Source: Actinomycetota bacterium (GTDB lineage: Bacteria; Margulisbacteria; Marinamargulisbacteria; GCA-2716485; GCA-002719695). Taken from it: a stretch of 64,000 bases of DNA. Position numbers and translations under genes: made by a program. The notes beneath the pieces were generated by a model. That model did no database searches. It saw nothing but the letters and a program-made list of their open reading frames with translations, and was not told the origin of the DNA. The DNA lies in NCBI GenBank assembly GCA_002697535.1, contig NZWE01000023.1:265-64264 (forward strand). Reading direction: 5' to 3'. Below, one piece after another: positions 7,700 through 42,064 of the stretch. The first letter of the stretch is position 1. Each line of letters opens with the position of its first letter.

Positions 7700-8648
7700 A
7701 TTATTAGATTTTGAAGAACCTATAAAAGAGTTATATGATCAAATTGATCAATTAAAATTGTTGTCAAAAGATGGCAAGCTTGATTTGGATGCTGAAATTA
7801 ATAAAATTGAACAACGTGCTGAATCATTAAAAAAAGAGATTTTTTCTGATTTAACACCTCATCAAATTGTACAAATTGCAAGACATCCTAATCGTCCTGA
7901 TACAACGAGTTTAGCACGTCTTATTTGTGATAGATTTACACAGTTATCTGGAGATCGTTTGTATCGAGATGATCCTTCTATTATTGGTGGGATTGGCTTA
8001 ATTGGTGGTCAGCGAATTATGTTAATTGGACATCAAAAAGGTCATGATACAAAAGAAAATATTTATCGTAATTTTGGAATGCCTCATCCTGAAGGGTATC
8101 GAAAAGCGTTACGTTTAATGAGATTAGCTGAAAAATTTGGTGTTCCTATTATTACTTTTATTGATACACCAGGTGCTTATCCTGGTTTAGAAGCTGAAGA
8201 ACGCGGTCAGGCTGAAGCTATCGCGAGAAATTTACGTGAAATGGTAGGTATCAAAGTTCCTATTGTTAGTATTGTCATTGGGGAAGGAGGATCCGGAGGG
8301 GCGTTAGCTATTGGGGTTTCGGATTGTATTTTTATGATGCAATATTCGGTGTATTCCGTTATTTCTCCAGAAGGATGTGCTTCGATTTTATTTCGTGATG
8401 CTAAAAAATCTGAAGATGCATCTAAAAGTTTAAAGTTAACGGCACCTGATGTTGTTAGATTAGGTGTAGCTGATCAAATTATTGAAGAACCTTTAGGTGG
8501 TTCTCATAATAATTGGGAAGATACAGCTTCTATCATGAAAAAGAATTTGTTAGAAACCATTAACCAATTAGTTAAAAAAGATCAGGAAACCTTGATTCAA
8601 GATCGTTATGCTAAGTTTCGTAAAATTGGAAGTTTTATAACTAGCTAG
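7692..8648 (+). CDS. accA: acetyl-CoA carboxylase carboxyltransferase alpha subunit
   Basis: Motifs 'LDFEEPI', 'RHPNRP', 'FIDTPGAYPG' and 'GEGGSGGALA'. The start is probably 'MAKLLDFEEP' (7692). The longest ORF starts at 7680. Confidence 0.95.
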   Translation: MAKLLDFEEPIKELYDQIDQLKLLSKDGKLDLDAEINKIEQRAESLKKEIFSDLTPHQIVQIARHPNRPDTTSLARLICDRFTQLSGDRLYRDDPSIIGGIGLIGGQRIMLIGHQKGHDTKENIYRNFGMPHPEGYRKALRLMRLAEKFGVPIITFIDTPGAYPGLEAEERGQAEAIARNLREMVGIKVPIVSIVIGEGGSGGALAIGVSDCIFMMQYSVYSVISPEGCASILFRDAKKSEDASKSLKLTAPDVVRLGVADQIIEEPLGGSHNNWEDTASIMKKNLLETINQLVKKDQETLIQDRYAKFRKIGSFITS

Positions 8649-9540
8649 GGGGTTGTTTATATAATTTAGCTAGTATCGGACTTGCTATACATAAGGATGA
8701 ATAGGTTCCACTTAAAATACCAATGGCTAAAATAATACAAAACTCTTGAATCGTTTTTCCACCAAATAGAATTAAGGCTGATATTACCATTAAGGTTGTA
8801 ATTGATGTGTTTAAGGTTCGTTGAAGTGTTTGATTAAGCGATGTGTTTGTTAGTTCATTAATATTACCTGAAACATAATTTTCTGTTTTTTCTCTAATTC
8901 GATCAAAAATAACGATGGTATCATTGATGGAATAACCTAAGATGGTTAATAGTGCTGCTATAAAGGCAATATTTATTTCTAAATTTAAAATAGATGTAAA
9001 GCTAAATATAATTAGACCATCATGTAATAAGGCTAATATTGCGGCTAAACCAAAGCTCAGTTGAAATCGAAGTGTAATATATAATAGCAAGGCGCCTGTT
9101 ACAAATATGATAATTAAGAAGGCTTGCTTTTGGAGAGATTTTCCAATACTTGGTCCAATAAAATCTATTTCTAATACTTCTATTGGGCCTACATTTTTTC
9201 GAATATTATTTAAAATTTCTGTTGTTTTGTTTTTTTCAATTGCAATGGTTTTAATATACACTTCATTATTATTTGAAAATTGTATTTGACTATTTTCTAA
9301 CTTATATTGAGCTAATGCATTACGAATGGATGTTAGGGTGCTAATTGAGTAGTTTTCAGTATTAGCATTGGCTAATTTTAAATGGAAGGTATTCCCTCCT
9401 ATAAAATCAATTCCAAAATTTAAAATAGGTTTTGCTTGAAAGAACCGTACTGTCATTAACGATATCCCAATGATAATGATTGTAATACTTATCATTAGCC
9501 AAAAATTCTTTTTTTCTACAAATTTAAATGATGTATTCAT
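8641..9540 (-). CDS. secF: protein translocase subunit SecF
   Basis: 299-aa polytopic protein. 'GIDFIGG' and 'GYSINDTIVIFDRIRE' are typical of SecF. ATGA overlap with secD. Confidence 0.92.
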   Translation of the reverse strand: MNTSFKFVEKKNFWLMISITIIIIGISLMTVRFFQAKPILNFGIDFIGGNTFHLKLANANTENYSISTLTSIRNALAQYKLENSQIQFSNNNEVYIKTIAIEKNKTTEILNNIRKNVGPIEVLEIDFIGPSIGKSLQKQAFLIIIFVTGALLLYITLRFQLSFGLAAILALLHDGLIIFSFTSILNLEINIAFIAALLTILGYSINDTIVIFDRIREKTENYVSGNINELTNTSLNQTLQRTLNTSITTLMVISALILFGGKTIQEFCIILAIGILSGTYSSLCIASPILAKLYKQPPS

Positions 9541-10844
9541 GATTTTCCTTTTTTAAATTGACTTAATGGGGATATGCTAAGTAACAATGCTTGTGTGATT
9601 GTAATGGCGGAAAACATACTAATGATAATTCCGATACTTAAGGTTATAGCAAATCCTTTTATGGTACCTGTTCCTAACCAGAATAGTACGATAGCAGCTA
9701 TTAATGTTGTGATGTTAGCATCTAGTATTGTGACATAGGCATGTTTAAATCCATTTAAAATACTTGCTTTTAAAGACGTGTTTTTTTTGATTTCTTCTTT
9801 AATTCGTTCAAAAATAATTACGTTTGCATCAACAGCCATTCCCATTGTTAAGATAAATCCAGCTATACCTGGCAGAGTTAAGGTTGCATCAATTAATTTG
9901 AATAAGGCAAATGATAAAATAATATAGCTTATTAAACTTATTGATGCTAATAATCCAGGGCCTTTGTACATAAAAACCATGTATATACCTACTAATATGA
10001 TACCTGCAATAAAGGCCAGTTTACTTTTTTCAATAGAATCTTTTCCTAAAGTTGGTCCTATTTGTTTTTCTGAGATTATTTCTACTGGAATTGGAAGAGC
10101 TCCTGCATTTAATTTGATAATTAGATTGCTTACTTCAGTTGGGGTAAAATCTCCTGATATTTGTGCTTTTCCACCTGAAATTGCTTGGTTTACATTAGGG
10201 GCAGAAATAATACGTTTATCAAGTAGTATGGCTAATGGCTTATTAATGCTTTTTGCGGTTGCTTGGTAAAATTTAGTCCCTCCTTCAGGTGTGAACTCTA
10301 GATTTACAATCGGTTTTCCAAATTGATCTGTTCCCGGACTTGCTTTACTTAAATCGCCCCCTGTTAATGCAATCTCTTTTAGTATAATGGGGCGTTTAAT
10401 GGATTGTTTCGATGTATTGTTATCTTCCATGTATGATAATTCACCTTTTTCTCCAATTAAAATTCTCTGTTTTTCTTCTGGTAGATTTTCTATTCCAGGG
10501 GGTGCCCATTCTGCAATAACAAATTCTAATAATGCAGTATCCCCAATCATAGCTTTTGCTTCATCTGGATTTTTTATTCCTGGTAATTCAATTGATATTT
10601 GGTCTTTTCCTTTTATTCTAATACTTGGTTCAGTTAGACCTAATGAGTCTATTCGGTTACGAATTACTTCTATGCTACCTAAAACACTGTCTCTGGTTAA
10701 TGGTTGGTTATTAGTGGGCTTTGCTTGTAAAATGAGGTGCATTCCGCCTTGTAGATCAAGTCCTAGATTAATTGGTTTTTTGATAATGGTGATAATACCT
10801 AGTATTATTAGAAAACAGGAAAAAAGTAGTTTTATTTTGTTCAT
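9537..10844 (-). CDS. secD: protein translocase subunit SecD
   Basis: 435 aa with 'LGLDLQGGMHL', 'GPTLG' and 'GMAVDANVIIFERIKEE', typical of SecD. Confidence 0.92.
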   Translation of the reverse strand: MNKIKLLFSCFLIILGIITIIKKPINLGLDLQGGMHLILQAKPTNNQPLTRDSVLGSIEVIRNRIDSLGLTEPSIRIKGKDQISIELPGIKNPDEAKAMIGDTALLEFVIAEWAPPGIENLPEEKQRILIGEKGELSYMEDNNTSKQSIKRPIILKEIALTGGDLSKASPGTDQFGKPIVNLEFTPEGGTKFYQATAKSINKPLAILLDKRIISAPNVNQAISGGKAQISGDFTPTEVSNLIIKLNAGALPIPVEIISEKQIGPTLGKDSIEKSKLAFIAGIILVGIYMVFMYKGPGLLASISLISYIILSFALFKLIDATLTLPGIAGFILTMGMAVDANVIIFERIKEEIKKNTSLKASILNGFKHAYVTILDANITTLIAAIVLFWLGTGTIKGFAITLSIGIIISMFSAITITQALLLSISPLSQFKKGKS

Positions 10845-10886
10845 GAGACTTATATTATAATCCTAGATTGCAATTACAACAAATGT

Positions 10887-12392
10887 CTATTCGTTTTTAT
10901 CTCTCATATGTGGAAATAGTAACACATCTCGTATAGAGTGTGAGTTTGTTAGTAACATTACAATTCGATCAATGCCTATTCCTAGTCCACCTGTTGGAGG
11001 TAACCCTTGTTTTAATGCTTGGATATAATCTAAATCCATTACTTGAGAATCTTCCATTCCCTTTTCTTTTGCTTTTAATTGATCTTGAAATCGGTCAAAT
11101 TGATCTTCTGGGTCATTTAACTCAGAAAAAGCGTTAGCAATTTCCATGCCGTTGATAATAAGTTCAAATCGTTCTACTAAATTATCGTTTTCACGGTGTT
11201 TTTTTGCTAATGGGGATGTTTCCCATGGATGATCTATGATAAATGTTGGTTGTATTAAGGTTGGTTCAATAAGGCTATCATAAAGTTCCATGATCAGATG
11301 TCCTTTTGTTGCTTCATTTGAGACATTTAGATTAAGCTCTTTTGCTTTATTTCTTAATTCGTTTATATTATTACAGTCAATGTTACATTTATTTTGAATT
11401 TCTTCTACTAATTTGATTCGTTTAAAGGGAGGTGTAAAATCTATTTCGGTATCTTTGTATACTATTTTATAGCTATTATGGATATTAAATACTAATGCTG
11501 ACAATAATTCTTCTGTTAGATTCATCATATCGTGATAATCTGTATAGGCTTCATATAATTCTAGTAATGTATATTCTGGGTTATGTTTGTATGAGATACC
11601 TTCATTTCGAAATACTCTTCCAATTTCAAATACTTTTTCAAAACCGCCAACAATAAGACGTTTAAGATGAAGTTCTAATGCAATTCTAAGGTAAAGATTT
11701 TGTTCTAGTTCGTTATGGAATGTATTAAATGGTTTTGCGTTAGCTCCTCCATAAATATTATGTAAAACAGGTGTTTCAACTTCCATGAATTCTTTTTTTT
11801 CTAAATAATTTCGAATAAATGAAATTGATTTTGATCGTATTTTAAAGGTTTCTTTGATATGAGGATTTGAAATTAAGTCAATATACCGGTGGCGATAACG
11901 AAGCTCTATATTTTGAAGACCGTGATACTTTTCTGGTAATGGTAGTAATGATTTTGTTAATAACTCTATATTTGTTACTTTGATTGTTAATTCTCCACGT
12001 TTCGTTTTAAATGGATTTCCAACAATACCAATGATATCGCCTACATCATAACTTAATATGTCATTAAATGTTTCTTCTCCTAATTTATTAGAGTTTGCAT
12101 ATAGTTGGATAATTCCAAATTCATCTTGTAAATTACCAAAGAATGCTTTTCCATGATTTCGTTTTGCCATGAGTCGTCCTGCTAATGTTACAGTTGTTTC
12201 GTTTGATTCACCTGTTTCTAAAGTATTGAAATTTTCATGAATGTCGGTTGTTTTATGTGTTTTTGAAAACGTATATTTAAAGGGATGTTTTGTTTGGTTT
12301 TTTAACTTAGTTAATTTTTCTAGTCGTATGGTTTCTTCAGTTTTATTTTCGTTTGATGATTGTTGGTTTTCTGTTATATCAGTTGGTTTCAT
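10887..12392 (-). CDS. lysS: lysyl-tRNA synthetase (class II)
   Basis: 501 aa with an OB-fold N-terminal domain and class II motifs ('FRNEGIS', 'GLGIGIDRIVMLLT'). Confidence 0.96.
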   Translation of the reverse strand: MKPTDITENQQSSNENKTEETIRLEKLTKLKNQTKHPFKYTFSKTHKTTDIHENFNTLETGESNETTVTLAGRLMAKRNHGKAFFGNLQDEFGIIQLYANSNKLGEETFNDILSYDVGDIIGIVGNPFKTKRGELTIKVTNIELLTKSLLPLPEKYHGLQNIELRYRHRYIDLISNPHIKETFKIRSKSISFIRNYLEKKEFMEVETPVLHNIYGGANAKPFNTFHNELEQNLYLRIALELHLKRLIVGGFEKVFEIGRVFRNEGISYKHNPEYTLLELYEAYTDYHDMMNLTEELLSALVFNIHNSYKIVYKDTEIDFTPPFKRIKLVEEIQNKCNIDCNNINELRNKAKELNLNVSNEATKGHLIMELYDSLIEPTLIQPTFIIDHPWETSPLAKKHRENDNLVERFELIINGMEIANAFSELNDPEDQFDRFQDQLKAKEKGMEDSQVMDLDYIQALKQGLPPTGGLGIGIDRIVMLLTNSHSIRDVLLFPHMRDKNE

Positions 12393-12482: not shown

Positions 12483-13691
12483 TTACATCATCATGTCAAA
12501 AATAGGTAAGTAGATAGAGATGGCTATAAATAGTACCATTCCGCCTAATACCATTGTGATAATAGGGTCTAGTTTTGCTGATAATTTTTTCATGTTGTGG
12601 GTTAATTCTTTATCCATAAAAGTTGTAATTCTGGCTAAAGATTCCCCTAAATTACCTGCTTTTTCTCCCATTGAAATAGTATAAGATACCATAACAGGTA
12701 CTATAGATTGGTTATCTACTAAGGCACCTGATAAAGGTAATCCTCTTGCTACATCTTTTCTCATTTCTGTTATGATTTGTTTTAATCTTAGGTTTTCAGT
12801 TGCTTCTTCAAGTACAACTAATGCTTGGGTAATTGGTACGTCATTATTGACTAAAATTTCGAAACAACCTAAAAATTTTAGTAGTTTTACTTGTTTATAG
12901 ATAGGCCCTGATAATGGTAAAAAAAATAATGATTTATGAAGTAGAAATTTTCCTTGCTCGGATCGATTGATGGCCATTATTGCTATTGTTAATATGGCAA
13001 GAACGGTTAATATCATAGGGTAGTATTCAATTAATATCTCTGAAGATCCAAATAAAATTTTTGTTGGCAGAGGGAGTTCTTTTCCTGAGGATTTGAATAT
13101 TTTTTTAAATGTAGGAGCTACAAATATTAAAATTAACGATAACATGGCTATTCCTATTGTGCTAACAATAATGGGATAGGTCATAATGCCAGTAACTTGT
13201 TTTTTTAAGTTATCAGTTTTTTCTAAAAAATTGGCTACATAGTCTAGGACATCGGGTAGTTTTCCTGATGCTTCTCCTGCTTTGAGAGCCATTGGAAGGA
13301 AATTAGGAAAAATTTTGCTGTGTTTTCCAAATGAATCTGAAATAGATGAGCCACTTTCAATGTCGATGATGATGGTTTCTAATGCTTCCGTTAAGAGTCT
13401 GTTTTTTAATTGTTTTGATAATAGTTGTAATGTTTCTTTGATTTTTAGTCCAGTTCTAATACAACCTGCAAATAACTGTGCAAAAGCTACTAATTCGTCA
13501 GATTCTACAGTTGTTGGTTTTGTTAGTTCATCTAATAACTTGTAACCCTCTGTTTTTAGCGAGATTGCATCAATATTTTTTTTCTTTAAAAAATTTTCAG
13601 CTTCTTTGTAATTAGATGCTTTTAATTTTTTTGTTAAAATTTTATTATTTGGGCCTTTGTAAACATATACAAATGTTTTCACGTTTCTCAA
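12483..13691 (-). CDS. GspF/PilC-family inner-membrane platform protein (type IV pilus / type II secretion)
   Basis: 402 aa with the duplicated GspF-type cytoplasmic domains plus 3 TM segments ('AGEASGKLPDVL', 'GEKAGNLGESL'). Confidence 0.85.
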   Translation of the reverse strand: MRNVKTFVYVYKGPNNKILTKKLKASNYKEAENFLKKKNIDAISLKTEGYKLLDELTKPTTVESDELVAFAQLFAGCIRTGLKIKETLQLLSKQLKNRLLTEALETIIIDIESGSSISDSFGKHSKIFPNFLPMALKAGEASGKLPDVLDYVANFLEKTDNLKKQVTGIMTYPIIVSTIGIAMLSLILIFVAPTFKKIFKSSGKELPLPTKILFGSSEILIEYYPMILTVLAILTIAIMAINRSEQGKFLLHKSLFFLPLSGPIYKQVKLLKFLGCFEILVNNDVPITQALVVLEEATENLRLKQIITEMRKDVARGLPLSGALVDNQSIVPVMVSYTISMGEKAGNLGESLARITTFMDKELTHNMKKLSAKLDPIITMVLGGMVLFIAISIYLPIFDMMM

Positions 13692-13741
13692 TCCTTATTT
13701 TTTTTGTTTGCTGGTTTGTATATTCCGTTTTTTAGCTGTTA

Positions 13742-15454
13742 TTAAACATCAACAACACGAACGAGTTCTTCAATTGTTGTTAGACCTTGAATTAATTTGT
13801 CGATACCATCTTCAAGCATTAATTTCATTCCATTTCTTCTTCCAGCATCTCGGATTTTTTCTGAACTTGCTTTTTGGATAATTAATTCTCGTGATTCTTC
13901 ACTTAAGGTTAAAATTTCAAAAATTCCTAAACGGCCTTTATAGCCTGATTCGTTGCAATATTTACATCCTGCTCCACGATGTAATTTTGGTGAATCATAC
14001 TCATTTTTTAATTTTTCTATTAATGCTTTTTCTTTGATGGATTCATAATCATCATAAGATGCTTCTTTTTTGCAATTTGGACAAATTCCACGGACTAATC
14101 GTTGTCCTATAACACCTATAAAGGCACTGTTAATTAAAAAAGGTTGAACCCCCATGTTTATAAGCCGAGTTACACTTCCTGCTGCACTTCTTGTATGTAA
14201 GGTTGAAAAAACTAAGTGACCTGTTAAGGCTGCTTGAATTGCAATGCCGGCTGTTTCAATATCTCTGATTTCTCCAATCATAATAACATCTGGGTCTTGT
14301 CGAACAACGGCAGATAGACCAGAAACAAAATCAACTCCAATTTTTGGGTTAACAGGAATTTGGTTAATTCCATCTAAGTTAAATTCTACGGGATCTTCAA
14401 TTGTAATGATATTTTTTTCAGGAGTGTTAATTTGTGATAAACATGAATATAAGGTGGAGGTTTTTCCAGATCCTGTTGGTCCACATACTAAAACGATGCC
14501 TGATGTTGATTGAATTAATCCTTGTAACAAATTGAAATTTATTTCATTTAGTCCTATTTTTTCCATTGTTACGAAGGCATCTGATTTTTCTAAAATTCTT
14601 AAAACCATTTTTTCACCGGAAATGGTTCTTACGGTAGAGACTCTAAAGTCAACTTCTTTATTTTTTAAAATAAAAGTTAATCGTCCATCTTGTGGTTTTC
14701 TTGTTTCTGTAATATCTAATTCAGCTAAAATTTTTAAACGAGATATGATAGGCGATGCTAACTTTCCTGGAGGTGCCATAATTTCTTTTAAAAGTCCGTC
14801 AACACGAAATCTAATTTTCACAATAGTTTCTTCGGGTTCTATATGAATATCAGAGGCTTTTTCTGCAATTGATTGGGTTAAAATGGTATCTACTAATTTT
14901 GCAATAGGTGCTTCTTGTGCTAAGTCTGTTGTTTCATCATCTCCACCTAAACCTTTGTCATCGACTAGTTCTAGACCCATTTCAAATAAGTTAGATACAC
15001 TGGACCCATCTGCTTCTAGCTTTTGATCTTGGTAAGAATAGGCGTAGTTAATTAATTCTAAAATAGTATTTTTTGGAGAAAAAATAATGGAAATGGTGCA
15101 CTTTGAAATAAATTCAAGTTCTTCAATTAATTCGGTGCTACATGGATTTGAGCTTGCTATGGTTAATGCTTCTCCTAATTGAAATAAGGGTATAATATGG
15201 TCTTTTCTAGCCATTGTTTCGGGTATTATCTGTGTTATTTTTAGATCTATTGTATTGTTATCAATAATATCAAAAGGGATATTTAATTTTTGTGCTAGCA
15301 ATAGTAAAATTTCTTGTTCTTCAATCTTTTCTTTTTCGATTAATGTTTCATATAATCCTTTTTCAATGAGTTCATTATTAGTTATTAATTCAGTGATTTC
15401 AGATTCTGCTATAGATTTGTTTGATGTTAGTATTTCTGATAATGATAGACTCAT
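13742..15454 (-). CDS. GspE/PilB-family secretion/pilus-extension ATPase
   Basis: 570 aa. It has a T2SSE_N-like N-terminal domain, Walker A 'GPTGSGKTS', Asp box and Walker B 'IMIGEIRD', a His box 'TGHLVFSTLHT', and tetracysteine 'CPNCK...CKYC'. Confidence 0.92.
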   Translation of the reverse strand: MSLSLSEILTSNKSIAESEITELITNNELIEKGLYETLIEKEKIEEQEILLLLAQKLNIPFDIIDNNTIDLKITQIIPETMARKDHIIPLFQLGEALTIASSNPCSTELIEELEFISKCTISIIFSPKNTILELINYAYSYQDQKLEADGSSVSNLFEMGLELVDDKGLGGDDETTDLAQEAPIAKLVDTILTQSIAEKASDIHIEPEETIVKIRFRVDGLLKEIMAPPGKLASPIISRLKILAELDITETRKPQDGRLTFILKNKEVDFRVSTVRTISGEKMVLRILEKSDAFVTMEKIGLNEINFNLLQGLIQSTSGIVLVCGPTGSGKTSTLYSCLSQINTPEKNIITIEDPVEFNLDGINQIPVNPKIGVDFVSGLSAVVRQDPDVIMIGEIRDIETAGIAIQAALTGHLVFSTLHTRSAAGSVTRLINMGVQPFLINSAFIGVIGQRLVRGICPNCKKEASYDDYESIKEKALIEKLKNEYDSPKLHRGAGCKYCNESGYKGRLGIFEILTLSEESRELIIQKASSEKIRDAGRRNGMKLMLEDGIDKLIQGLTTIEELVRVVDV

Positions 15455-15837
15455 TATTCTGATAGATAGGTTATAGCACTTTCATCTTCTTCAAAAATTT
15501 TTATTTTAGATGATATTTTTGTTATATCTAATACCCTTCTAACATCTTTTTTTGGATTTAAAAGGACTATTTTTCCATTTCTTTGTTCTGCTTTTTTAAA
15601 GCTTTCAAATATGGCCCATAAACCAGATGAATCAATGTAACTTATTTGTGATAAGGTTAGTATTATTTTTGATACACCTTCGTCTAATAATGAATTTATT
15701 TGTTCTAAAAATGGTATTTGGTTTTCAATGTCAAGTTCTATGGTACCTGTTAATTCGTTTGTATCTTCATCTTTTTCATTGCCAAAATTAATTTTGGTAA
15801 TGTCGGTGTTTGATATTTTTTTAATTTCTATTTCCAT
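15454..15837 (-). CDS. STAS-domain protein (RsbV/SpoIIAA-like anti-sigma-factor antagonist)
   Basis: 127 aa. 'ISYIDSSGLWAI' contains the canonical phosphorylatable DSSG serine. The stop overlaps the PilB-like start (TAATG). Confidence 0.85.
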   Translation of the reverse strand: MEIEIKKISNTDITKINFGNEKDEDTNELTGTIELDIENQIPFLEQINSLLDEGVSKIILTLSQISYIDSSGLWAIFESFKKAEQRNGKIVLLNPKKDVRRVLDITKISSKIKIFEEDESAITYLSE

Positions 15838-15852
15838 TTAATATTATTATAC

Positions 15853-18800
15853 TTACTGAGCGTTATATTTAACAAGTTTTAGTTTGTTTTCGGTTTGTGT
15901 AGAGGAGAAGTTTATTTCATCCATTAGTGTATAGATTAAAAATAGACCTAATCCGGAGCCTTCTAGTTTTTCAAGATTATTACTTATTTTTTTTTCGATA
16001 GAGTCACTTTTTAATGGGATTCCGTTGTCTTTAATAATAATTTCTAATTTGTCTTCATATATAGCAAAATTAAAATAAATATATTTACTTGGATCGCCAA
16101 GATAGGCATGTTCGATAATATTAGCTTGGGCTTCATTAACAGCTAGTTGTAAATCTAATTTTATTTGATGGTTCATGTTGTGGGATTTGCATATCGATTC
16201 AATTTCTTTTCTAATTTTTTTGATTTCTGAGATTATACTTAATGTTTTGATGCTTTTTTTAAAAAGAAGTTGGTTTTTATATTGTAATTTTTGATTAATT
16301 TTACAGGCAATGACAGTTATATCATCTTTTTTAATCGTTTGATTTTCAGATCCAGTTAGGTAGTTTTTAATTTTATTTAATAATATTTGAGGTGGGAATT
16401 TTTGATTTTTTTGAACAAAACTTTTGACACCATTTAACCCAATGGATGTGTTGTTTGCTATTTTTGTTTCTAAAATTCCATCAGTAAATAAAAATAATAA
16501 GTCATTATCTTCGATTTTTATTTCTTTTTCTATAAATGTTTCATTTTCGTAACCAGCAAGAGGAAATCCTTTTGTATCTAATTTAATGAATTTATTTTTT
16601 CTTAGAATATAGCCTGGTTCATGACCTGCATTTGAAAAGGTGAAGGTGTTTTTTTTAGAATCTAGTATGCCATAAAAGAGGGGAATGAATTTATTAATTA
16701 CAGGATCTGCGTAAATTGTTTTATTGAGTTGGTTGATGGTTTCTTTTGGGGATTTTTCTGCGTTAATGTTTCTATTAATAATACTTTTTAATACGGCCAT
16801 ATATAATCCTGCAGGAATACCTTTTCCGACGATATCAGCGATAATGATACCTGTACGATTTTTGTCTAGCTCTATAAAATCGTAGAAATCTCCTCCAATT
16901 TTTTGTGCAGGGATATTTAATGCTCCAAATAATAATTTTGATTTTGTAGGTAAATTTTTTGGAAGTAAGTTGTTGTGTATATCAGATGCTACCTTTAATT
17001 CTTGGTCAATTTTTTCTTTTTCTAATTTTTCTTTATAAAGCATTGAGTTTTGTATTGTTGTTGCTATGAGGGTTGTGATGGTTACTAAGGTATCAATATC
17101 TTCTTTTGTGAATGTTTCTGCAGAGGTTCCATATTTTCTAGCAAGATTAATAATGCCAATTAATTCATTGTTAATTAGAATGGGGATGCATAGGTAGAGT
17201 TCAATTAAAATTTTTACATTGGGGTCTAGCTCTGGAGATGAAAAATAGTTATCTATAAGTATTAATTTTTTGGTTTTTTCTACTTTTTCTGAAATGGTTT
17301 TTCGATTTTTGTAACGGAAAGATCGACGTATTTTTTCGGGAAAATTTCTATGTTGTGCTGTTATGAAACGATCTTTTTGTTTGAGTTGAATGGATCCCAT
17401 ATTGCATTTTGTTGATTTTAATAAGAAGTCTATTAAAACATCTAGTAGTTTATCTAGGTTTTGGATGGATTTTATCATTAAATTTACTTCTGATATTGCT
17501 TCTAATCGTTGTGTTTTAATTCGGTCCATTTGTTGTAGTTGTGTAATATCTCTAAATAAAAATATGATGCCAACATATCCATACTCTTTATTTATTACAG
17601 GTGAAATATTAACCATAAAATTTTTGTTGTTATAGTTTGCATTTTCATTAATAACGGGTTGTTTTGTTTTAATGACTTGTTGGTATAGTTTTATTAGTCG
17701 TAAATCTTCTAATAAACCAATTAACTTTTCTTGAGTAATATGTTGATTTTGATTGATGTTCAGTAACGTTGCTGCTTTTGGGTTGATGATGTTTATATTA
17801 TGTTTTTCATCTAAGATGATAACGGGTTCGATAATACTTTCAATTACAGAATATATTTTTGATTTTTCTAATTCACGAATAATTTTTATTTTTCCTAGAG
17901 ATGAAGATACTTGGTTTGATATTGTATGTGCAAATTGGAGTTCGTTTTTTTGAAATGCTGATTTTTTAAATGATAAGAGTGTAATGATTCCAATAATTTC
18001 ATCTCTAAATATTAGTGGAATGGTGGCATGTGAGTTAATTAGTTTTTCTTTGGAAATACTTTTTTTATTTAGTTTGGTAATTTTTATATCTATATTATTG
18101 GGATTAATGGATGTTGAAAAAAAAGAGTCGATAGAATTTAGTGTTGATTTAGTTAAAATTTTTATTGTTGAATGATGAAAATTACTACCTACAGTAACAA
18201 ATAATTCATTTTTATTAAAAATCTTTTTTAAAAAAATTGAACAAGCGTCATAACTAAGAACTTTATTAATACTTATGGATATTTTTTCAATTATTTCAAT
18301 ATAATTTAAGGAATGACTTACTTCATTGGATGTTTCATATAGTGTTGTTAGTTCGATTAAACGTTGGTTTAGGGATTGTTCATCTTTGTGTATTTTTTGT
18401 GTAAGTTTATTTTTATCATCTAGTAATGATTCTATTTTTTTGTGAATATGGTAATTTTCTATAGAATTAATGATTTGATTAATGTAATGATTGGAAAGTT
18501 GAATTTTCTCGTTTATATTTTTATAGGATGTTGTTAATTTTTGTTTTATCTCCCAATTATGGATAAAAATTGTTCCAAAAATTATTTTTTCTTCGTTAAT
18601 AATATTAATAAATAAACCATCATCACATGGGTATTTATATTTTTTTGTATCCTTATTATATTGGGTAAAGTCCGTTAATATAAATTGGGATCGATTTTTT
18701 ATATAAAGAAAAGGTTTTTGTTTATTATTTTTTTGATTGGTTAGCCATCTGCTCATATTATTTGGTAAGGGCCATAGGTTTTTGTTTGATAGTGTTCCAT

Positions 18801-18954
18801 CAATTTTTTTTCTATCGATATCAAATGTATAGATGTTGATGCTGCTTGTAGGAAAAATAAATTGAAAAATACGAAAGACTTCTTCTATGATGGTTTTTTC
18901 AGAAAATAAATTGCTATTAATTTGATTAATGGATTCTTCTATTTTGTTCAACAT
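15853..18954 (-). CDS. multidomain sensor: GAF-PAS-GAF, PP2C (SpoIIE/RsbU-type) phosphatase and C-terminal RsbW/SpoIIAB-type kinase (HATPase) fusion
   Basis: 1033 aa. PP2C motifs are 'GGDFYDFIEL', 'ADIVGKGIPAG' and 'LFTDGILE'. The C-terminus carries the N-box 'VNEAQANIIEHA' and G-boxes 'DNGIP' and 'GSGLGLFLI'. A PAS-like region reads 'IIEPVIILDEKHNINIINPKAATLL...FRDITQ'. Confidence 0.85.
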   Translation of the reverse strand: MLNKIEESINQINSNLFSEKTIIEEVFRIFQFIFPTSSINIYTFDIDRKKIDGTLSNKNLWPLPNNMSRWLTNQKNNKQKPFLYIKNRSQFILTDFTQYNKDTKKYKYPCDDGLFINIINEEKIIFGTIFIHNWEIKQKLTTSYKNINEKIQLSNHYINQIINSIENYHIHKKIESLLDDKNKLTQKIHKDEQSLNQRLIELTTLYETSNEVSHSLNYIEIIEKISISINKVLSYDACSIFLKKIFNKNELFVTVGSNFHHSTIKILTKSTLNSIDSFFSTSINPNNIDIKITKLNKKSISKEKLINSHATIPLIFRDEIIGIITLLSFKKSAFQKNELQFAHTISNQVSSSLGKIKIIRELEKSKIYSVIESIIEPVIILDEKHNINIINPKAATLLNINQNQHITQEKLIGLLEDLRLIKLYQQVIKTKQPVINENANYNNKNFMVNISPVINKEYGYVGIIFLFRDITQLQQMDRIKTQRLEAISEVNLMIKSIQNLDKLLDVLIDFLLKSTKCNMGSIQLKQKDRFITAQHRNFPEKIRRSFRYKNRKTISEKVEKTKKLILIDNYFSSPELDPNVKILIELYLCIPILINNELIGIINLARKYGTSAETFTKEDIDTLVTITTLIATTIQNSMLYKEKLEKEKIDQELKVASDIHNNLLPKNLPTKSKLLFGALNIPAQKIGGDFYDFIELDKNRTGIIIADIVGKGIPAGLYMAVLKSIINRNINAEKSPKETINQLNKTIYADPVINKFIPLFYGILDSKKNTFTFSNAGHEPGYILRKNKFIKLDTKGFPLAGYENETFIEKEIKIEDNDLLFLFTDGILETKIANNTSIGLNGVKSFVQKNQKFPPQILLNKIKNYLTGSENQTIKKDDITVIACKINQKLQYKNQLLFKKSIKTLSIISEIKKIRKEIESICKSHNMNHQIKLDLQLAVNEAQANIIEHAYLGDPSKYIYFNFAIYEDKLEIIIKDNGIPLKSDSIEKKISNNLEKLEGSGLGLFLIYTLMDEINFSSTQTENKLKLVKYNAQ

Positions 18955-18961
18955 TTTTTTG

Positions 18962-19327
18962 TTAATTGTTTATTGCTTGAAATAATTTTTCTATATCAAA
19001 TGGTTTATAAATAATGCCACTAATCAGGGGAGATAATGGTTGTTCTAAAACATAACGGTAATTTTTGCTGATGGCAAGAAGAATGTATGGTTTATTATCT
19101 AATTTTTTGATTATTTGCATGTTTTTTTTTATATATTCATTATCTAAATCATTATCAATAATAATTAAAGAATTTGATTGAATGGTATTGTTTTTTATAG
19201 CGTCTTCTATTTTAGAGGTTTTGATTTTATTATTTTTTAGTGCATACGATATTATATTGAAAATGGATTTGTCTTGTAACATTGGAATGACATTGTTAAT
19301 TGTTTTCATTATTTTTAATTTTATCAT
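18962..19327 (-). CDS. stand-alone CheY-like receiver domain protein (acidic pocket partly degenerate)
   Basis: 121 aa. 'SLIIIDNDL' looks like the phospho-acceptor Asp context, 'LLAISK' like the T/S position, and 'YKPFDIEKL' like the Lys-Pro position. The N-terminal DD pair reads 'QD'. Confidence 0.6.
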   Translation of the reverse strand: MIKLKIMKTINNVIPMLQDKSIFNIISYALKNNKIKTSKIEDAIKNNTIQSNSLIIIDNDLDNEYIKKNMQIIKKLDNKPYILLAISKNYRYVLEQPLSPLISGIIYKPFDIEKLFQAINN

Positions 19328-19524: not shown

Positions 19525-20223
19525 ATGAGCGATATGAAAGACGAAAATGTTGAGCTTGATTCAGAATTAGAGACTAAGAATTTTGTTTTTCCTAAGTGGG
19601 TTAACAAAGTTCCTGCAATTATTGCCGTTTCTGTTGTCGGTATTTTAATGTTTGTTGTGCATTTGTTTTGGTATTGGTTTTCTCCTAATCATTTAGAAAT
19701 TGGTTATGAGCCAGAACAACCTATTCCTTATAGTCATCGTTTTCATGCGGGTGAACTAGGTATTGATTGTCGGTATTGTCATTATAATGTTGAAACTCAG
19801 GCTCATGCTAATATACCATCGGCAGAACTTTGTTTGAATTGTCATTCTCAAATTAAGCAAGATAGTCCTTATATTAAAGATGTTAAAGATCATTATGATA
19901 GTAATACTCCGATTGAATGGGTAAATGTTCATATGTTGCCAGAGTATGCTTATTTTGATCATTCTCGCCATGTAAATTCTGGTGTTTCCTGTGTACAATG
20001 TCATGGTAGAGTAGATCAGATGGAAGTTGTTCAACAAGTTGAATCGTTAAGTATGTCGTGGTGTTTGGATTGTCATCGAAATCCAGAGCCAAATATTTGG
20101 CCAAAAGAACATGTTACTAATTTGTCTTGGGAGTCAGATGAAGATCCCTTAGAAATGGGGAAGCGTTTGGTAGAAGAGTATCATCTTAATCCGAAAATTG
20201 AATGTAGTGTGTGTCATAGGTAG
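19525..20223 (+). CDS. actA: alternative complex III subunit ActA (pentahaem cytochrome c)
   Basis: One TM helix and five CxxCH motifs (CRYCH, CLNCH, CVQCH, CLDCH, CSVCH). Confidence 0.9.
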   Translation: MSDMKDENVELDSELETKNFVFPKWVNKVPAIIAVSVVGILMFVVHLFWYWFSPNHLEIGYEPEQPIPYSHRFHAGELGIDCRYCHYNVETQAHANIPSAELCLNCHSQIKQDSPYIKDVKDHYDSNTPIEWVNVHMLPEYAYFDHSRHVNSGVSCVQCHGRVDQMEVVQQVESLSMSWCLDCHRNPEPNIWPKEHVTNLSWESDEDPLEMGKRLVEEYHLNPKIECSVCHR

Positions 20224-20232
20224 GAGAAATTA

Positions 20233-23200
20233 ATGAAAAAGCAATGGCGTAGTATTGAAGATTTAAATAATGATAAAAGAGTTGAGAAGTTTAAGTTTCG
20301 AGAATTCCAGGAAGGTGCATCGGAGTTAAATGAAGGTGTTTCTAGGCGTGATTTTTTAAAATTTCTTGGTTCTACGGCTGCTTTAGCAGGTTTATCAGGT
20401 TGTAATATTAGAAAGCCCTATTATAAAATAAAACCTTATGCTAGAAAGGTTGAGCATTCAGTTCCTGGTATTCCAACTTTTTATGCTACCTCTTTTCAGG
20501 TTAATTCTGCTGTCTATGGTCTTTTGGCGGAAACTCATGAAGGAAGACCTACAAAGATTGAAGGAAATCCAACCTATCCAAATACACAGGGATCCTCGGT
20601 ATTATTTCCTCAGTCTTCTATTATCGATTTATATGACCCTGATCGTCTAAAGTTTCCTTTACATTTAACCAAAACAGGATCTATGGATGATTTTAAAGAT
20701 TGGATGCTTGCTAAAAAGCGTGATTTTAGAAAGAACTCTGGAAAAGGGTTAGGGTTTTTGTTGGGGCATACATTATCTCCTTCTACCTATAAGCTTATTG
20801 ATTCTATCCGTTCTGTGTTGCCACAAGCTCAGTTTTATCGTTATGAAGCAGTAAATGATGATAATCGAGTTTTTGGATTAGAGACTTTAACAGGTCGTTA
20901 TGTTAATACAAAGTTTGACTTATCTCGTGCTAATGTTGTTGTTTCTTTGTCAGATGATTTTTTATCTTATGGTCATCATCAAGTTCAGTATTCAAGAGAT
21001 TTTGCAAATCGTCGTGACCCAGATAATGATTCGGATCTAAATCGTTTATATGTTTTTGAAGAACGGTATACAGTTACAGGTACTAAAGCGGATCATCATT
21101 TCCCTGTTAAACAATCTGATATGGTTCATGTTTTATCTCAATTACTTGTTTTAATTTCTAGAAAAGTTGGTTTTGATTTATCTCGTTTTACTAATATTAA
21201 GTATAAAGAACTTCAGTTGGATTTTGTTGATCATAAAGTTTTATCGGCGGTTGCTAATGATCTTGTTTCAAATCGTGGGCGTTCTTTAGTTACGGCAGGA
21301 TCATCTTTAGATGAATCTATGCATCAATTAGTGTTTTTACTTAATAGTATTTTAGGTAATAATTTTAAAACGGTTTTTTATCAAAAACTTCCTTTTTCTA
21401 ATTATGATTTTAATAAAGTAAGATCTATTGAATCCATTACTAAGTTTATTTCTGATTTAAATAACAAAAAATTAGATACGGTTATGATTTTAGATGGGGA
21501 TCCTGTTTATTCGGTTCCTCAAGAGTTAGGGTTGAAGTTAGCTTTATCTAAGGCTCAAGATCGTATTTATTTATCGTCTCATGATAATCAAACGGCAAAA
21601 TTATGTAATTGGGTTATTCCTAAATTACATTATTTAGAATTTTGGAATGATTTGGAGTCTATTGATGGTGTTGTTTCTATTGCGCAGCCTGTTATTCGTC
21701 GAACTGTTGATGGTTTATCAGAGCATGAATTGTTGAATTTAGTGTATCGTGTTTATCGATCGGATTATGCCATTGTTAAGAAGCATTGGAGTTATTTATC
21801 TTCTAATCAATATGATAAGGCTATTCATGATGGGTTTTTATATACTAAAAATACGGTTGTGTATCCTAGTTTTAATAAAAAAATTACTGTTTCGACAGTT
21901 CAATCTTCGAGTCATGATATTGAAGTAACATTATATCCTGATTATAAAGTATTTGATGGTCGTTTTAGTAATAATGGATGGCTTCAAGAATTATCTGATC
22001 CTCTTCATAAATTAACTTGGGATAATGCGGCGTATATTGCTCCTAAGACTGCTAAAAAGTTGTCATTAGAAACAGGTGATTTTGTTCGTTTGCAGACTGA
22101 TTATGCGTCATTAGATATTCCTGTTTTTATTTCTCCTGGACATGCCTTTGATTCTATTTCTATTCCTATGGGATATGGAAAAGAGATGGGGAATCGTATT
22201 GAGGAAGGGGTTGGGTTTAATGGGTTTCATTTGTTAAATAAAGATGGCGCTATTTCACATGTAACGCTTATTAAACAGAGTGAAAAGCATCAGTTTGCTA
22301 GTACTCAAGATCATGGTTCTATGGAAGGTAGACCTCATGTTCGCTATGCTACTGTATCAGAATATCAAGCTAATCCAGAGTTTGCTCAAGGTCAAGAAGA
22401 AGTCCCTCATGACAAAGCTTTATGGGATAATCATAAATTTGATACGGGTTACCAGTGGGGAATGGTTATTGATTTAAATCGTTGTTTATCATGTAATGCT
22501 TGTACCGCAAGTTGTCAGGCAGAAAATAATATTCCTATTGTTGGAAAAGAAGAAGTTTTGAATGGTAGAGAAATGCATTGGAATAGAACGGATCGTTATT
22601 ACGAAGGAGATTTGGATAATCCAAAAGTTTTAGAACAACCTGTATCATGTTTACATTGTGAAAATGCTCCTTGTGAGCAAGTATGTCCAGTTGCTGCTAC
22701 GGTTCATGATGATGAAGGACTTAATGTCATGGTTTATAATCGTTGTGTTGGTACTCGATATTGTGCTGATAATTGTCCGGTAAAAGTTCGTAAATTTAAC
22801 TTTTTTGATTATCATCAACGTCATCCTCAAGCTGTACCTAAAAAGAAATATCATTTGTTTGATTATATAAAAGAGCCTGATAAGTCGTTAGCGAAGCAGT
22901 TTAACCCTGATGTTACTGTTCGTATGAGGGGTATTATGGAAAAATGTACCTATTGTATTCAACGAATAAAATCAGCAACAAGAAAGGCTTCTAATGAACA
23001 ACGTGTTGTAAAGGATGTTGATTTGAAAACAGCATGTCAGCAAGCTTGCCCGACGGATGGAATTGCTTTTGGAAATATTTTGGATAAAGATAGCAAAGTT
23101 TATAAATGGCGTAAAAAGCAACGTAATTATTCGATATTAGAGCAACTTTTATTAGGTGCGCGGACAACTTATTTAGCAAATGTTTTTAATCCCAATAAAG

Positions 23201-23274
23201 CATTGGTTGCCGAAAATTCAAGTCATGATAAAAGACATCATGTGAAAAAGGAGTCCCATGGCAACAAGCATTGA
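20233..23274 (+). CDS. actB: alternative complex III subunit ActB (molybdopterin-oxidoreductase-like plus 4Fe-4S ferredoxin fusion)
   Basis: 1013 aa with Tat signal '[21 protein letters not shown]'. The C-terminal half carries Cys clusters '[11 protein letters not shown]', '[14 protein letters not shown]' and '[12 protein letters not shown]'. Confidence 0.9.
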
Positions 23275-24640
23275 GAATACGGTACAAGTAAAAAGACCTG
23301 ATTTAGTTGTTCCTGGGGAAACGTTTGAGTCGGTTACAGAAATTGTTAGTAGGCCTATGGAAATGAAATTGCCATCATGGTGGTTAATTGTATTTTGTGT
23401 TGCTGTTTCTGGTGTTTTATTGCTAAAGTCGATGATTGCTTATTTAATATGGGAAGGGATTGGTATTTGGGGACTTAATAACCCTGTTGGTTGGGGTTAT
23501 GCTATCGTAAATTTTGTTTTTTGGGTTGGTATTGGCCATGCAGGTACATTAATTTCAGCTATTTTATTTTTATTTCGTCAAAAATGGCGTACGGCTATTA
23601 ATCGTTTTGCTGAAGCGATGACTATTTTTGCTGTAATATGTGCAGGTATTTTTCCAGGGATTCATATTGGTCGTCAGTGGTTAGCGTATTGGTTGTTTCC
23701 AATACCAAATTCGATGGGCATGTGGCCTAATTTTAAAAGCCCTTTATTATGGGATGTATTTGCAGTTAGTACATATTTTACAGTTTCATTGATGTTTTGG
23801 TATGTGGGGTTAGTGCCTGATTTAGCTACTATGAGGGATAGAGCTAAAAGTAAAGTGAGGCAAATGATTTATGGTGTTTTTTCTTTAGGGTGGCGAGGTT
23901 CTAATCGTCATTGGCAGAATTATGAAAAGGCTTATTTATTATTAGCAGCTTTAGCGACTCCTCTAGTTTTGTCGGTGCATTCTATTGTAAGTTTTGACTT
24001 TGCTGTTTCTCAGTTGCCAGGATGGCATACTACTATATTCCCTCCTTATTTTGTTGCAGGAGCTATTTTTTCTGGATTTGCTATGGTTGTTACTTTAATG
24101 GTTTTAGCTAGGCAGCTTTTTAATTTAAAGTCTTTAGTTACAATTGGACATTTAGAGAGAATGAATAAGATTATTTTATTGACAGGGATGTTGGTAGGAT
24201 ATGCTTATGGAATGGAGTTTTTTATGGCTTGGTATTCTGGGTACCAATATGAAACATTTGCTTTTATCAATCGAGCCTCTGGCCCTTATGCTTGGGCTTA
24301 TTGGATTATGGTTTCTTGTAATGTTATTTCTCCACAGTTGTTTTGGTTTAAGAAATGTAGAACAAGTATTCCAATTATGTTTATTATTAGTATCTTTGTA
24401 AATATTGGTATGTGGTTTGAACGCTTTGTTATTACTGTTACTTCGCTTCATAGAGACTTTTTGCCTTCATCATGGGGTTACTATAGTCCAACATGGGTTG
24501 ATGTTTGTACATTTGTTGGTTCTTTTGGTTTGTTTTTTACTTTGTTTTTATTGTTTCTTAGATTTTTGCCTTCGATTTCAATTTCAGAAATTAAAAATGT
24601 CATGCCTGAAGCAGATCCTCATTATGGAGAGGAGCATTAA
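23258..24640 (+). CDS. actC: alternative complex III subunit ActC (NrfD/PsrC-like quinol-interacting membrane subunit)
   Basis: 460-aa polytopic membrane protein located directly after ActB, with a 17-nt overlap. Confidence 0.85.
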
Positions 24641-24642
24641 TT

Positions 24643-25170
24643 ATGAATGAAATTTTATTAGCTGAATTTTCATCTCCAAAGGCTTTATTAAAAGCAGCAG
24701 AGGTATTATCTGATTGTGGTTATAGTAAATATGACGTTTATTCTCCTTTTCCTATTCATGGGATGGATGATGCTATGAAATTAAAACATTCTAAGCTGGG
24801 GTGGATTGTTTTATGTGGAGGTTCGGTTGGGTTGTTAACTGGGTTTTGTTTACAAACATGGGTTTCGTTACATTATCCACTTATTATTAGTGGTAAACCT
24901 TTTTTTAGTTATCCTGCTTTTGTTCCTGTAACCTTTGAACTAATGGTTTTATTTTCTGCCTTTTCAGCTGTTTTTGGTATGTTTGCTCTTAATAAACTTC
25001 CTCAACATTATAATCCTTTATTTAAAAGTGCTTATTTTAGAAAAGCAACTAGTCATGGGTTTTTTATTGGATTGGATTCTACTGAAAAGGGTTATGATCG
25101 TGAAAAACTTAGAGAGCTGTTGGGTACTATAGGGGTTAACCATATTGAGATAATTGAGGATTCTGAATGA
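24643..25170 (+). CDS. actD: alternative complex III subunit ActD (DUF3341-like)
   Basis: 175 aa with a soluble N-terminus followed by two TM helices. It holds the conserved position in the act operon. Confidence 0.8.
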   Translation: MNEILLAEFSSPKALLKAAEVLSDCGYSKYDVYSPFPIHGMDDAMKLKHSKLGWIVLCGGSVGLLTGFCLQTWVSLHYPLIISGKPFFSYPAFVPVTFELMVLFSAFSAVFGMFALNKLPQHYNPLFKSAYFRKATSHGFFIGLDSTEKGYDREKLRELLGTIGVNHIEIIEDSE

Positions 25171-25784
25171 AACATTTTATAATTTTATTGTTTTTACTAT
25201 CTTGTTTAGTTGGTTGTCGAGGGTGGCGATCTGAAAAACCTCCTGTTCATTTAAATCCTAATATGGATTTTCAGGCAAGTACTAGGTCTCAGGAAGACCC
25301 TCAATTAATGCCAGACCATACAGTTGCTTGGGGGATGGAGTCTGCTATGTCTTATCCTGAAAAGCGAGATGCTGTGATTAAACAGTTTAATAAACCTTTT
25401 TATACAGGTAAAACGAATGATGGGGTATGGGTAAAAACGGTCCCTGTTGATGTTACTAATGCGGTTTTAAAACGAGGTCAAGATCGTTTTGATATTTATT
25501 GTTCGATGTGTCATGGTAACGATGGGTCTGGAAATGGAATTGTTATGGAATATGGTTGGTTTAAACCAAAACCATATTGGGATAATACTATCGTATCGTA
25601 TCGTGATGGTGAATTGTTTGATATCATTACAAATGGTATTAGAACGATGCCTTCTTATTCTCAGCAAATTAATGAGTCAGACCGCTGGGCGATTGTTACT
25701 TATATAAGAGCTTTGCAAGTGTCTAATAAAATGAATTATCGTGATGTTCCGTTAGAATATCAACAAAAACTTAAATCACTGTGA
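25167..25784 (+). CDS. actE: alternative complex III subunit ActE (monohaem lipoprotein cytochrome c)
   Basis: Signal peptide with lipobox 'LVGC' and a single haem motif 'CSMCH'. ATGA overlap with actD. Confidence 0.85.
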   Translation: MKHFIILLFLLSCLVGCRGWRSEKPPVHLNPNMDFQASTRSQEDPQLMPDHTVAWGMESAMSYPEKRDAVIKQFNKPFYTGKTNDGVWVKTVPVDVTNAVLKRGQDRFDIYCSMCHGNDGSGNGIVMEYGWFKPKPYWDNTIVSYRDGELFDIITNGIRTMPSYSQQINESDRWAIVTYIRALQVSNKMNYRDVPLEYQQKLKSL

Positions 25785-25793
25785 GAGGTACGA

Positions 25794-26990: not shown

Positions 26991-27001
26991 GAGGTTTTTT
27001 A

Positions 27002-27304
27002 ATGTCTGATGTTGAAGTTAAATATTATGAAGATGAGCCGGACGCTGTTAATGTTACTTTAGGGTTTATTATTACAGCTGTGTTTTTGCTTGTTGTTGTT
27101 ATTTTTAGTTATTTTTTGTTTACTTCGATGTTGTCTCATGATAAAAATCAAAAGCGATCTATTGTTAAAACGCCTAAATTAAATGTGTTAAATCAGGAAT
27201 ATGAGTTTCAATTAGATGATTTACGCTGGGTTGATAAACCGCAAGGTCTGGTCAAAGTTCCCATTGATGTTGGTATGCAATATGTTATTAAACGTTATAA
27301 TTAG
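27002..27304 (+). CDS. small single-TM membrane protein (possible accessory ACIII/oxidase subunit)
   Basis: 100 aa with an acidic N-terminus and one TM helix 'VTLGFIITAVFLLVVVIFSYFLF'. It lies between actF and the SCO1 gene. Confidence 0.6.
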   Translation: MSDVEVKYYEDEPDAVNVTLGFIITAVFLLVVVIFSYFLFTSMLSHDKNQKRSIVKTPKLNVLNQEYEFQLDDLRWVDKPQGLVKVPIDVGMQYVIKRYN

Positions 27305-28076: not shown

Positions 28077-28080
28077 TACA

Positions 28081-29052: not shown

Positions 29053-29055
29053 TTC

Positions 29056-31283: not shown

Positions 31284-31292
31284 GAGATTGTA

Positions 31293-42021: not shown

Positions 42022-42037
42022 GTTTTAGTTTGTTACT

Positions 42038-42064
42038 TTGATAAAATAATTATTATGATATAAT
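42038..42064 (+). promoter_or_regulatory. candidate internal promoter ahead of the sulfur-carrier gene
   Basis: TTGATA (42038-42043), a 15-nt spacer, then TATAAT (42059-42064) within the 71-nt gap. The spacer is shorter than optimal. Confidence 0.25.

Follow-up and report, generated by a model that had tools for sequence, protein, structure and literature searches.

What does a partner-switching phosphorylation module control when no sigma factor gene lies beside it? The question is raised by a 64,000-nucleotide stretch of contig NZWE01000023.1 (positions 265 to 64,264; assembly GCA_002697535.1), here called the window, in which genes for a receiver-like protein, a 1033-aa sensor phosphatase/kinase and a single-domain STAS protein are followed head-to-tail on the minus strand by genes for a PilB/GspE-type assembly ATPase and a PilC/GspF-type platform protein. 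An initial annotation of this sequence proposed that the phosphorylation state of the STAS protein may directly gate the ATPase or its assembly. In the present analysis, this interpretation as a whole is partly supported. A functional link of the module to a pilus or secretion machine is reasonably likely, and rests on gene order in uncultured organisms. Our tentative reading, to which we give the most weight, is that of a non-canonical partner switch with the STAS protein as its output, whose targets would be the pilus machine and at least one more.

A partner-switching module without a co-encoded sigma factor

The five minus-strand open reading frames (ORFs) of the block were recovered at exactly the coordinates first given (Table 1), and the intergenic spacings of 7, 15, -1 and 50 nt agree with them. 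Pfam searches of the 1033-aa protein identified GAF (residues 219-352), PAS (369-470) and GAF_2 (499-635) domains, followed by a PP2C-type phosphatase domain and a C-terminal serine kinase domain, and the orthologues have the identical domain order GAF-PAS-GAF-PP2C-RsbW kinase. The nearest solved relatives of the PP2C domain are Pseudomonas aeruginosa RssB, Rv1364c and SpoIIE, and its metal-binding Asp motifs GGDFYD, ADIVGKG, FTDGI and DDIT are legible in the sequence. The kinase domain scored 72.9 bits against HATPase_c_2 (gathering cut-off 27.4), and its alignment to the RsbW chain 6m36_A covers the N-box (NEAQANIIEHAY) and the G2 box (GSGLGLFLI). Against the NCBIfam RsbW model it scored 72 bits, under the equivalog cut-off of 145, as expected because the domain is part of a fusion. 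The catalytic motifs of both domains are intact, and the corresponding activities are predicted.

The STAS protein scored 62 bits against the NCBIfam model for anti-sigma factor antagonists (TIGR00377, cut-off 53) and aligns to the structures of SpoIIAA and RsbV. The canonical DSSG serine motif described in the initial annotation is present as D69-S70-S71-G72 and falls over the Ser58 region of SpoIIAA, with Ser70 (codon 15628-15630) as the predicted phospho-acceptor. Judged by its STAS, kinase and PP2C domains, the module is thus of the RsbU/RsbV/RsbW type, without a co-encoded sigma factor. The absence of a sigma factor gene, first remarked for the module itself, holds for the entire 64-kb window; no sigma-factor domain was detected with Pfam in the 60 ORFs spanning 95.5% of it, nor in the annotated related loci described below. 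The same 60 ORFs contained no further pilus gene beyond pilB and pilC.

Table 1. Features of the module, of pilB-pilC and of the genes that follow them in the window.
Feature	Position	Strand	Evidence and remarks
Receiver-like single-domain protein, 121 aa	18962..19327	-	Degenerate; Pfam Response_reg 17.1 bits
Sensor phosphatase/kinase, 1033 aa	15853..18954	-	
Sensor half, residues 1-680: GAF, PAS, GAF and unassigned N-terminal ~200 aa	16915..18954	-	Pfam
PP2C (SpoIIE/RsbU-type) serine phosphatase domain, residues 698-886	16297..16863	-	Pfam SpoIIE E 6e-35, 121 bits
RsbW/SpoIIAB-type serine kinase domain, residues 911-1029	15868..16224	-	Pfam HATPase_c_2 E 3e-20
Single-domain STAS protein, 127 aa	15454..15837	-	Pfam STAS E 3.5e-18
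PilB/GspE-type assembly ATPase, 570 aa	13742..15454	-	Pfam T2SSE E 1e-132, 442 bits; MshEN
PilC/GspF platform protein, 402 aa	12483..13691	-	Pfam T2SSF in two copies, E 4e-47
lysS, secD, secF	8641..12392	-	Downstream context outside the module; Pfam; no terminator-like site before them

Conservation of the link between the module and pilB-pilC

In order to survey relatives from the STAS side, a metagenome scan with a STAS alignment was combined with contig look-ups, and the resulting 57 loci were annotated using the window proteins as queries. STAS has 213 homologues in the database, including some from Marinamargulisbacteria single-cell genomes, and all 120 of those listed were at least 50% identical to the window STAS. 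The sensor kinase/phosphatase and STAS genes were always found together in the surveyed loci. Immediately downstream of STAS, pilB-pilC were present in 24 loci, usually followed by lysS-secDF; in 17 loci (14 distinct STAS sequences) lysS-secDF followed directly without pilBC, and in nine loci, where STAS was at most 46% identical, neither was found. The contig ended in another eight, which were not assessable.

From the PilB side, approximately 66 PilB orthologue clusters were found at 49% identity or more, with a sharp drop below this to 47% or less; STAS orthologue clusters number at least 120 by comparison. Six PilB loci at the low-identity edge (L138-L143) were looked up, and in four of them, L139, L142, L140 and L143 (PilB identities of 49%, 52%, 56% and 55%), the module lies upstream of pilB. 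One of these four contigs had already been counted, and the complete block of receiver, sensor, STAS, PilB and PilC genes thus recurs outside the window in another 27 loci, 24 from the STAS side and three from the PilB side. The initial annotation had made its proposal depend on the adjacency of STAS and pilB being shared with relatives, and the adjacency extends across these 27 loci to PilB proteins of 49% identity. None of the six PilB-side look-ups contained an orphan PilB orthologue. Furthermore, no PilB orthologue reaching 52% identity was located apart from the module, based on four of four PilB-side look-ups and on the only two loci of that identity among 80 from species-representative genomes. 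These two closest loci belong to a marine metagenome-assembled genome (84%) and to Candidatus Marinamargulisbacteria SCGC AAA071-K20 (59%), and the next best matches, at 46-47%, were from other phyla. The window itself is Marinamargulisbacteria-like.

The adjacency spans at least five different upstream and four different downstream contexts. Upstream of the block we observed the alternative complex III (ACIII) operon in the window, LptFG in L081, L139 and L142, an aminotransferase gene on the P0083 contig, ZnuABC in L140 and a secretin gene in L143, and downstream lysS, a TfoX_N gene in L140, a convergent MscS gene in L143 and an unknown gene in L139 and L142. Among the 13 assessable loci, the pilC-lysS junction was broken in four and the STAS-pilB junction in none. 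The small secretin of L143 (119 bits) is encoded two genes upstream of the receiver, placing the module between secretin and pilBC, and in L081 a pilin gene follows pilC. Because the adjacency is deep in the clade and persists with rearranged flanks, because a pilin (L081), a secretin (L143) and a TfoX_N protein (L140) are encoded beside the block, and because no sigma factor is encoded nearby, we favour a functional tie over coincidence.

Origin of the link and its repeated loss

The sensor protein was aligned over 1031 columns, and a neighbour-joining tree with 200 bootstraps was calculated from the alignment. Within the ingroup, the earliest to diverge are L139 and L142, both pilB-adjacent (100%). 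The main clade without pilBC, in which lysS follows STAS, is monophyletic (86%) and nested, and L114, which also lacks pilBC, groups as sister of the window clade (97%). Support for the rest of the backbone is weak. Read most economically, this sensor tree points to a single joining of the module and pilBC at the base of the clade, in an ancestor of Marinamargulisbacteria-like bacteria. A different module arrangement was seen in the most distant STAS relatives (L133 3257-5874 and L136 5789-8378), where a shorter PP2C protein of approximately 590-600 aa without a kinase domain is followed by two tandem STAS genes.

Weighing the functional tie against other explanations

In the reading that we tentatively favour, the 1033-aa cytoplasmic protein would sense ligands or cell state through its GAF and PAS domains. 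Its RsbW-type kinase domain would phosphorylate Ser70 of the STAS protein and the PP2C domain of the same chain would remove the phosphate, both activities being suggested by the motifs described above. The small receiver would feed a two-component signal into the module in most relatives, and probably not in the window lineage. The STAS protein would serve as the output instead of a nearby sigma factor, most likely when unphosphorylated, by analogy only with HmpV, SypA and RbaV. One of its targets would be the co-encoded PilB/PilC pilus or secretion machine, reached directly or through an adaptor, and there would be at least one further target.

Several observations weigh against a link dedicated to this machine. 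On the most economical reading of the tree, pilBC were cleanly deleted at least twice after the joining, with receiver, sensor and STAS kept and STAS left abutting lysS. Across 20 STAS orthologues, at 49-89% identity to the window STAS, 32 positions are invariant, among them D69-S70-S71-G72, which is invariant with or without pilBC alongside. All invariant positions are unchanged in the pilBC-less group, none being relaxed or switched, and we found no STAS columns conserved only in the pilB-adjacent group that could mark a candidate PilB-binding surface. Since the module was kept through at least two deletions of pilBC with the constraint on STAS unchanged, PilB would not be the sole or a necessary partner of STAS, and a further target is needed unless pilB has been relocated in those genomes; the lack of orphan PilB orthologues in the six look-ups and the smaller number of PilB than of STAS orthologue clusters are weak, indirect hints against such a relocation. 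These natural deletions point to another role of the module, for which any model must account. In addition, outgroup loci carry the module alone, and Riflemargulis-like relatives carry pilB-pilC in a classical pilin/PilM/PilO cluster without the module; these are the two remaining PilB-side look-ups, L138 (Candidatus Margulisiibacteriota, PilB 50%) and L141 (49%), with the arrangement pilB-pilC-pilins-...-PilM/PilO. Outside the clade, 78 PilB loci belonging to other phyla were scanned with profile hidden Markov models for STAS, PP2C and kinase. None has a module gene next to pilB, the closest case being L063, where a single STAS gene lies on the opposite strand at a distance of about 5 kb; a general STAS-PilB association across bacteria was not found. 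Finally, the unrelated genes lysS-secDF share synteny with the module across much of the phylogenetic range in which pilBC do so, in nine of 13 assessable pilB-adjacent loci and in all 17 pilBC-less loci.

The adjacency could be historical only, a general-purpose signalling module with its target elsewhere having landed beside pilBC once and having been kept there by low rearrangement in small, compact genomes. The retention of the module with identical STAS invariants after the pilBC deletions, the outgroups with the module alone, the similar synteny of lysS-secDF, STAS-lysS junctions that are as tight as those of STAS and pilB, and the high coding density of the window would all be accounted for by such a history. 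However, the STAS-pilB junction survives in L139, L140, L142 and L143, where both flanks are rearranged and the pilC-lysS junction is lost; the module of L143 is placed between a secretin and pilBC; and no PilB orthologue at or above 52% identity was found apart from the module. On balance we consider a purely historical adjacency somewhat unlikely.

A canonical anti-sigma mechanism, in which the RsbW-like domain would sequester a sigma factor encoded elsewhere until unphosphorylated STAS frees it to transcribe a regulon that may include pilus genes, with pilBC as passengers in the operon or as members of the regulon and not as protein targets, is the default mechanism of the family. It would account for the persistence of the module without pilBC and is in keeping with the best matches of the kinase domain (RsbW and SpoIIAB) and of STAS (SpoIIAA and RsbV). 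We nevertheless regard it as unlikely in view of the lack of a sigma factor in the 64-kb window and the annotated related loci, and of the fused kinase-phosphatase systems SypE and HsbR and the cyanobacterial HmpUVW, in all of which STAS itself is the output.

The PilB/PilC machine and its possible direct gating

The window PilB carries a Walker A motif (GPTGSGKT, residue 325), an Asp box (EDPVE, 353), a Walker B motif (RQDPDVIMIGEIRD, 385), a His box (TGHLVFSTLHT, 411) and a tetracysteine zinc motif (CPNC, 458, and CKYC, 497), and its best solved match is Geobacter PilB. It scored 579 bits against the PilB model TIGR02538 (cut-off 676) and 553 bits against the GspE model TIGR02533 (cut-off 630), while PilC scored 251 bits against the NCBIfam GspF model and 216 bits against that for PilC, both under cut-off. 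These family scores do not decide between a type IV pilus and a type II secretion system. The context favours a pilus, because orthologues of 49-50% identity lie in pilin/PilM/PilO clusters and a pilin gene follows pilC in L081. Such a pilus is possibly used for DNA uptake; the small TfoX_N gene directly after pilC in L140 (10927-11256), related to competence regulators, is a hint of this role. At the TTG start of pilC (13691) an AGGA sequence directly abuts the start codon, and a GTG codon three codons downstream (13682) has normal spacing; the true start may be this GTG instead of the TTG.

The PilB protein also contains an MshEN domain (Pfam, 49.6 bits). In MshEN domains, cyclic di-GMP (c-di-GMP) is bound by a motif of 24 residues, RLGxx(L/V/I)(L/V/I)xxG(L/V/I)(L/V/I)xxxxLxxxLxxQ. 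This motif is absent from the window PilB and from all 14 orthologues examined, and control of PilB by c-di-GMP through MshEN is therefore unlikely, which leaves room for a different input. That this input is the STAS protein, with its phosphorylation state directly gating the hexameric PilB/GspE-type ATPase or the docking of the ATPase on PilC, as first proposed, is plausible, but we give it a low probability. Direct gating, if true, would be an undescribed post-translational control route for the motors of type IV pili or type II secretion, and PilB/PilC would then represent the long-sought effector class of STAS outputs of the HmpV type in the cyanobacterial lineage.

A degenerate receiver in the window clade

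The description of the first gene of the block as encoding a CheY-like receiver applies only in part. The protein is homologous to receivers, but in the window it is degenerate and falls under the Response_reg gathering cut-off of 30.2 bits. In an alignment with its orthologues and CheY, the equivalents of D57 and K109 are kept and those of D12/D13 and T87 are gone, whereas its positional orthologues in other clades are canonical receivers with all five residues and up to 86 bits against Response_reg (L143). The module receivers of these relatives score 134-179 bits among themselves and only 24-34 bits against the window protein, a divergence confined to the window's own clade (window, L085-L090 and L098). 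The window protein is probably a pseudo-receiver that is no longer phosphorylated, and the loss of the acidic pocket and of T87 only in this clade suggests that phosphorelay input has been lost or replaced there. In the window and in all orthologues, the receiver is encoded by a separate gene and not in the same polypeptide as the kinase and PP2C domains.

Just upstream of the pilB-pilC-pilin clusters of L138 (3836-7398) and L141 (3323-7754), single-domain receiver genes occur singly or in tandem arrays of up to three, together with an SNF2-family helicase gene in the opposite orientation. These receivers are not orthologous to that of the module. A derivation of the module receiver from those upstream of the Riflemargulis-type pilus cluster was rejected, as only generic similarity of 32-70 bits was found.

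Gene junctions and transcription

The TAATG at the junction of STAS and pilB (...GAATAATGAGT) is real, a single A being common to the TAA of STAS and the ATG of pilB. The initial annotation took this overlap to imply translational coupling, a conclusion that fails in the genomic context. Neighbouring genes of this genome typically overlap or lie no more than 10 nt apart, and STAS-lysS junctions are equally tight; at 95.5% coding the overlap of STAS and pilB is therefore uninformative on specific coupling. This counts as a further point against a dedicated link. Overlaps of 1 or 4 nt at the STAS-pilB junction were found in 15 of the 24 pilB-adjacent loci, and in eight of the 17 pilBC-less loci the STAS-lysS junction is at 0, -1 or -4, including both TAATG and ATGA forms. 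Translational coupling was consequently dropped as a sign of a functional link.

The module genes are co-directional with pilB-pilC with no terminator between them, and a terminator scan found no terminator-like site on the minus strand between 19327 and 8641, a region that includes lysS, secD and secF. A promoter scan returned 65 promoter-like sites, where 66 are expected by chance, and the promoter and terminator scans are uninformative. An Rfam scan of the whole window gave no matches. In two of the pilBC-less loci, L101 (2593-2674) and L103 (8387-8470), STAS and lysS are separated by a spacer of about 80 nt, in which a conserved ...ACCGGTTGAT...CCGGATTTTT... element resembles a hairpin followed by a T-run. 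This element could be a terminator remaining at the site of the pilBC deletion.

Comparison with known partner-switching systems

Partner switches with an output other than a sigma factor are known in SypA, HsbA, BtrV, RbaV and HmpV, the STAS target being mostly unidentified. PilB-type motors are controlled by c-di-GMP, by PilZ/FimX-type adaptors and by polar activators, and to our knowledge their known regulators include no serine-phosphorylated STAS protein. In a literature search, we found nothing on a STAS protein acting on PilB and no mention of hmp genes adjoining pilB-pilC, and pili do not figure in a 2021 review on single-domain STAS proteins.

The functionally closest known system, by an analogy of function, is HmpU/V/W of Nostoc punctiforme, which likewise consists of a PP2C phosphatase, an RsbW-like kinase and a single-domain STAS protein, and whose host phylum, the Cyanobacteria, is sister to the Margulisbacteria. 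According to two publications that describe the work of Riley et al. (2018), hormogonium motility depends on HmpU/V/W together with type IV pilus genes, and HmpV is the proposed output when unphosphorylated, its effector being described there as undefined with no sigma factor target identified (PMC6495340; PMC8256260). In Nostoc these are three separate proteins; in the window, one chain combines the kinase and the phosphatase C-terminal to GAF-PAS-GAF sensors, and a receiver gene belongs to the block.

The closest parallels in architecture are SypE/SypA, HsbR/HsbA and Rv1364c, each with a fused kinase-phosphatase. In Vibrio fischeri, the kinase and PP2C domains of SypE share one polypeptide and both act on the single-domain STAS protein SypA, again with a non-sigma output (PMC10120452, PMC8256260). 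SypE differs by its central receiver, the order being kinase-REC-PP2C instead of GAF-PAS-GAF-PP2C-kinase with the receiver in a separate gene, and the output of SypA is polysaccharide and biofilm formation and not a pilus or secretion ATPase locus. HsbR/HsbA (PA3346/PA3347) of P. aeruginosa share with the window module the order of PP2C followed by a HATPase_c_2 kinase acting on a STAS protein, as well as a receiver input, there via a phosphorelay. HsbA has the non-sigma partners FlgM and the cyclase HsbD and controls motility versus biofilm formation (PMC5085249, PMC6482189). However, the receiver of HsbR is fused, GAF/PAS sensors are lacking and the locus is unlinked to pilB-pilC. Rv1364c of Mycobacterium tuberculosis, whose structure 3ke6 was found by sequence match (E 9e-9), combines a PAS sensor, PP2C and RsbW-like kinase in one chain; unlike the window protein, it has STAS fused at the C-terminus, is linked to sigma F and has no pilus context. 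BtrU/V/W of Bordetella provide a partner switch that controls type III secretion post-transcriptionally without classical sigma release (PMC8256260), albeit with separate proteins, at a type III secretion locus and with no PilB/GspE-type ATPase.

The window module is thus distinguished by GAF-PAS-GAF instead of a fused receiver, by a separate receiver gene and by a lineage-wide, operon-like link to pilB-pilC. As this link is held across an uncultured lineage sister to the Cyanobacteria, PilB/PilC offer a concrete, testable candidate for the missing STAS effector.

Other genes in the window

Divergent from the module, the plus-strand region 19525-31715 begins with the ACIII operon, which encodes the multihaem ActA, ActB, the NrfD-like ActC, ActD and a cytochrome c; genes for SCO1 and for cytochrome c oxidase subunits II, I, III and IV follow within this region. 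Together, ACIII and the A-type oxidase agree with the respiratory chain published for Marinamargulisbacteria (PMC6349859). Four plus-strand ORFs of 336-698 aa had no Pfam match at E 1e-4 or better (31765-33831, 58255-60351, 51857-52867 and 25794-26990); the last of these may, judged by its position, encode the ActF subunit of ACIII. At 40069-43861 (plus strand), genes for a CysM-like enzyme dependent on pyridoxal phosphate, a JAB/Mec+ protease, a ThiS/CysO-like carrier, a ThiF-rhodanese E1-like enzyme and a rhodanese form a cluster whose predicted products resemble the protein-thiocarboxylate route to cysteine. Genes of the arginine succinyltransferase pathway are found in a row at 52932-58115 (plus strand), encoding an aminotransferase, AstA, an aldehyde dehydrogenase and AstB.

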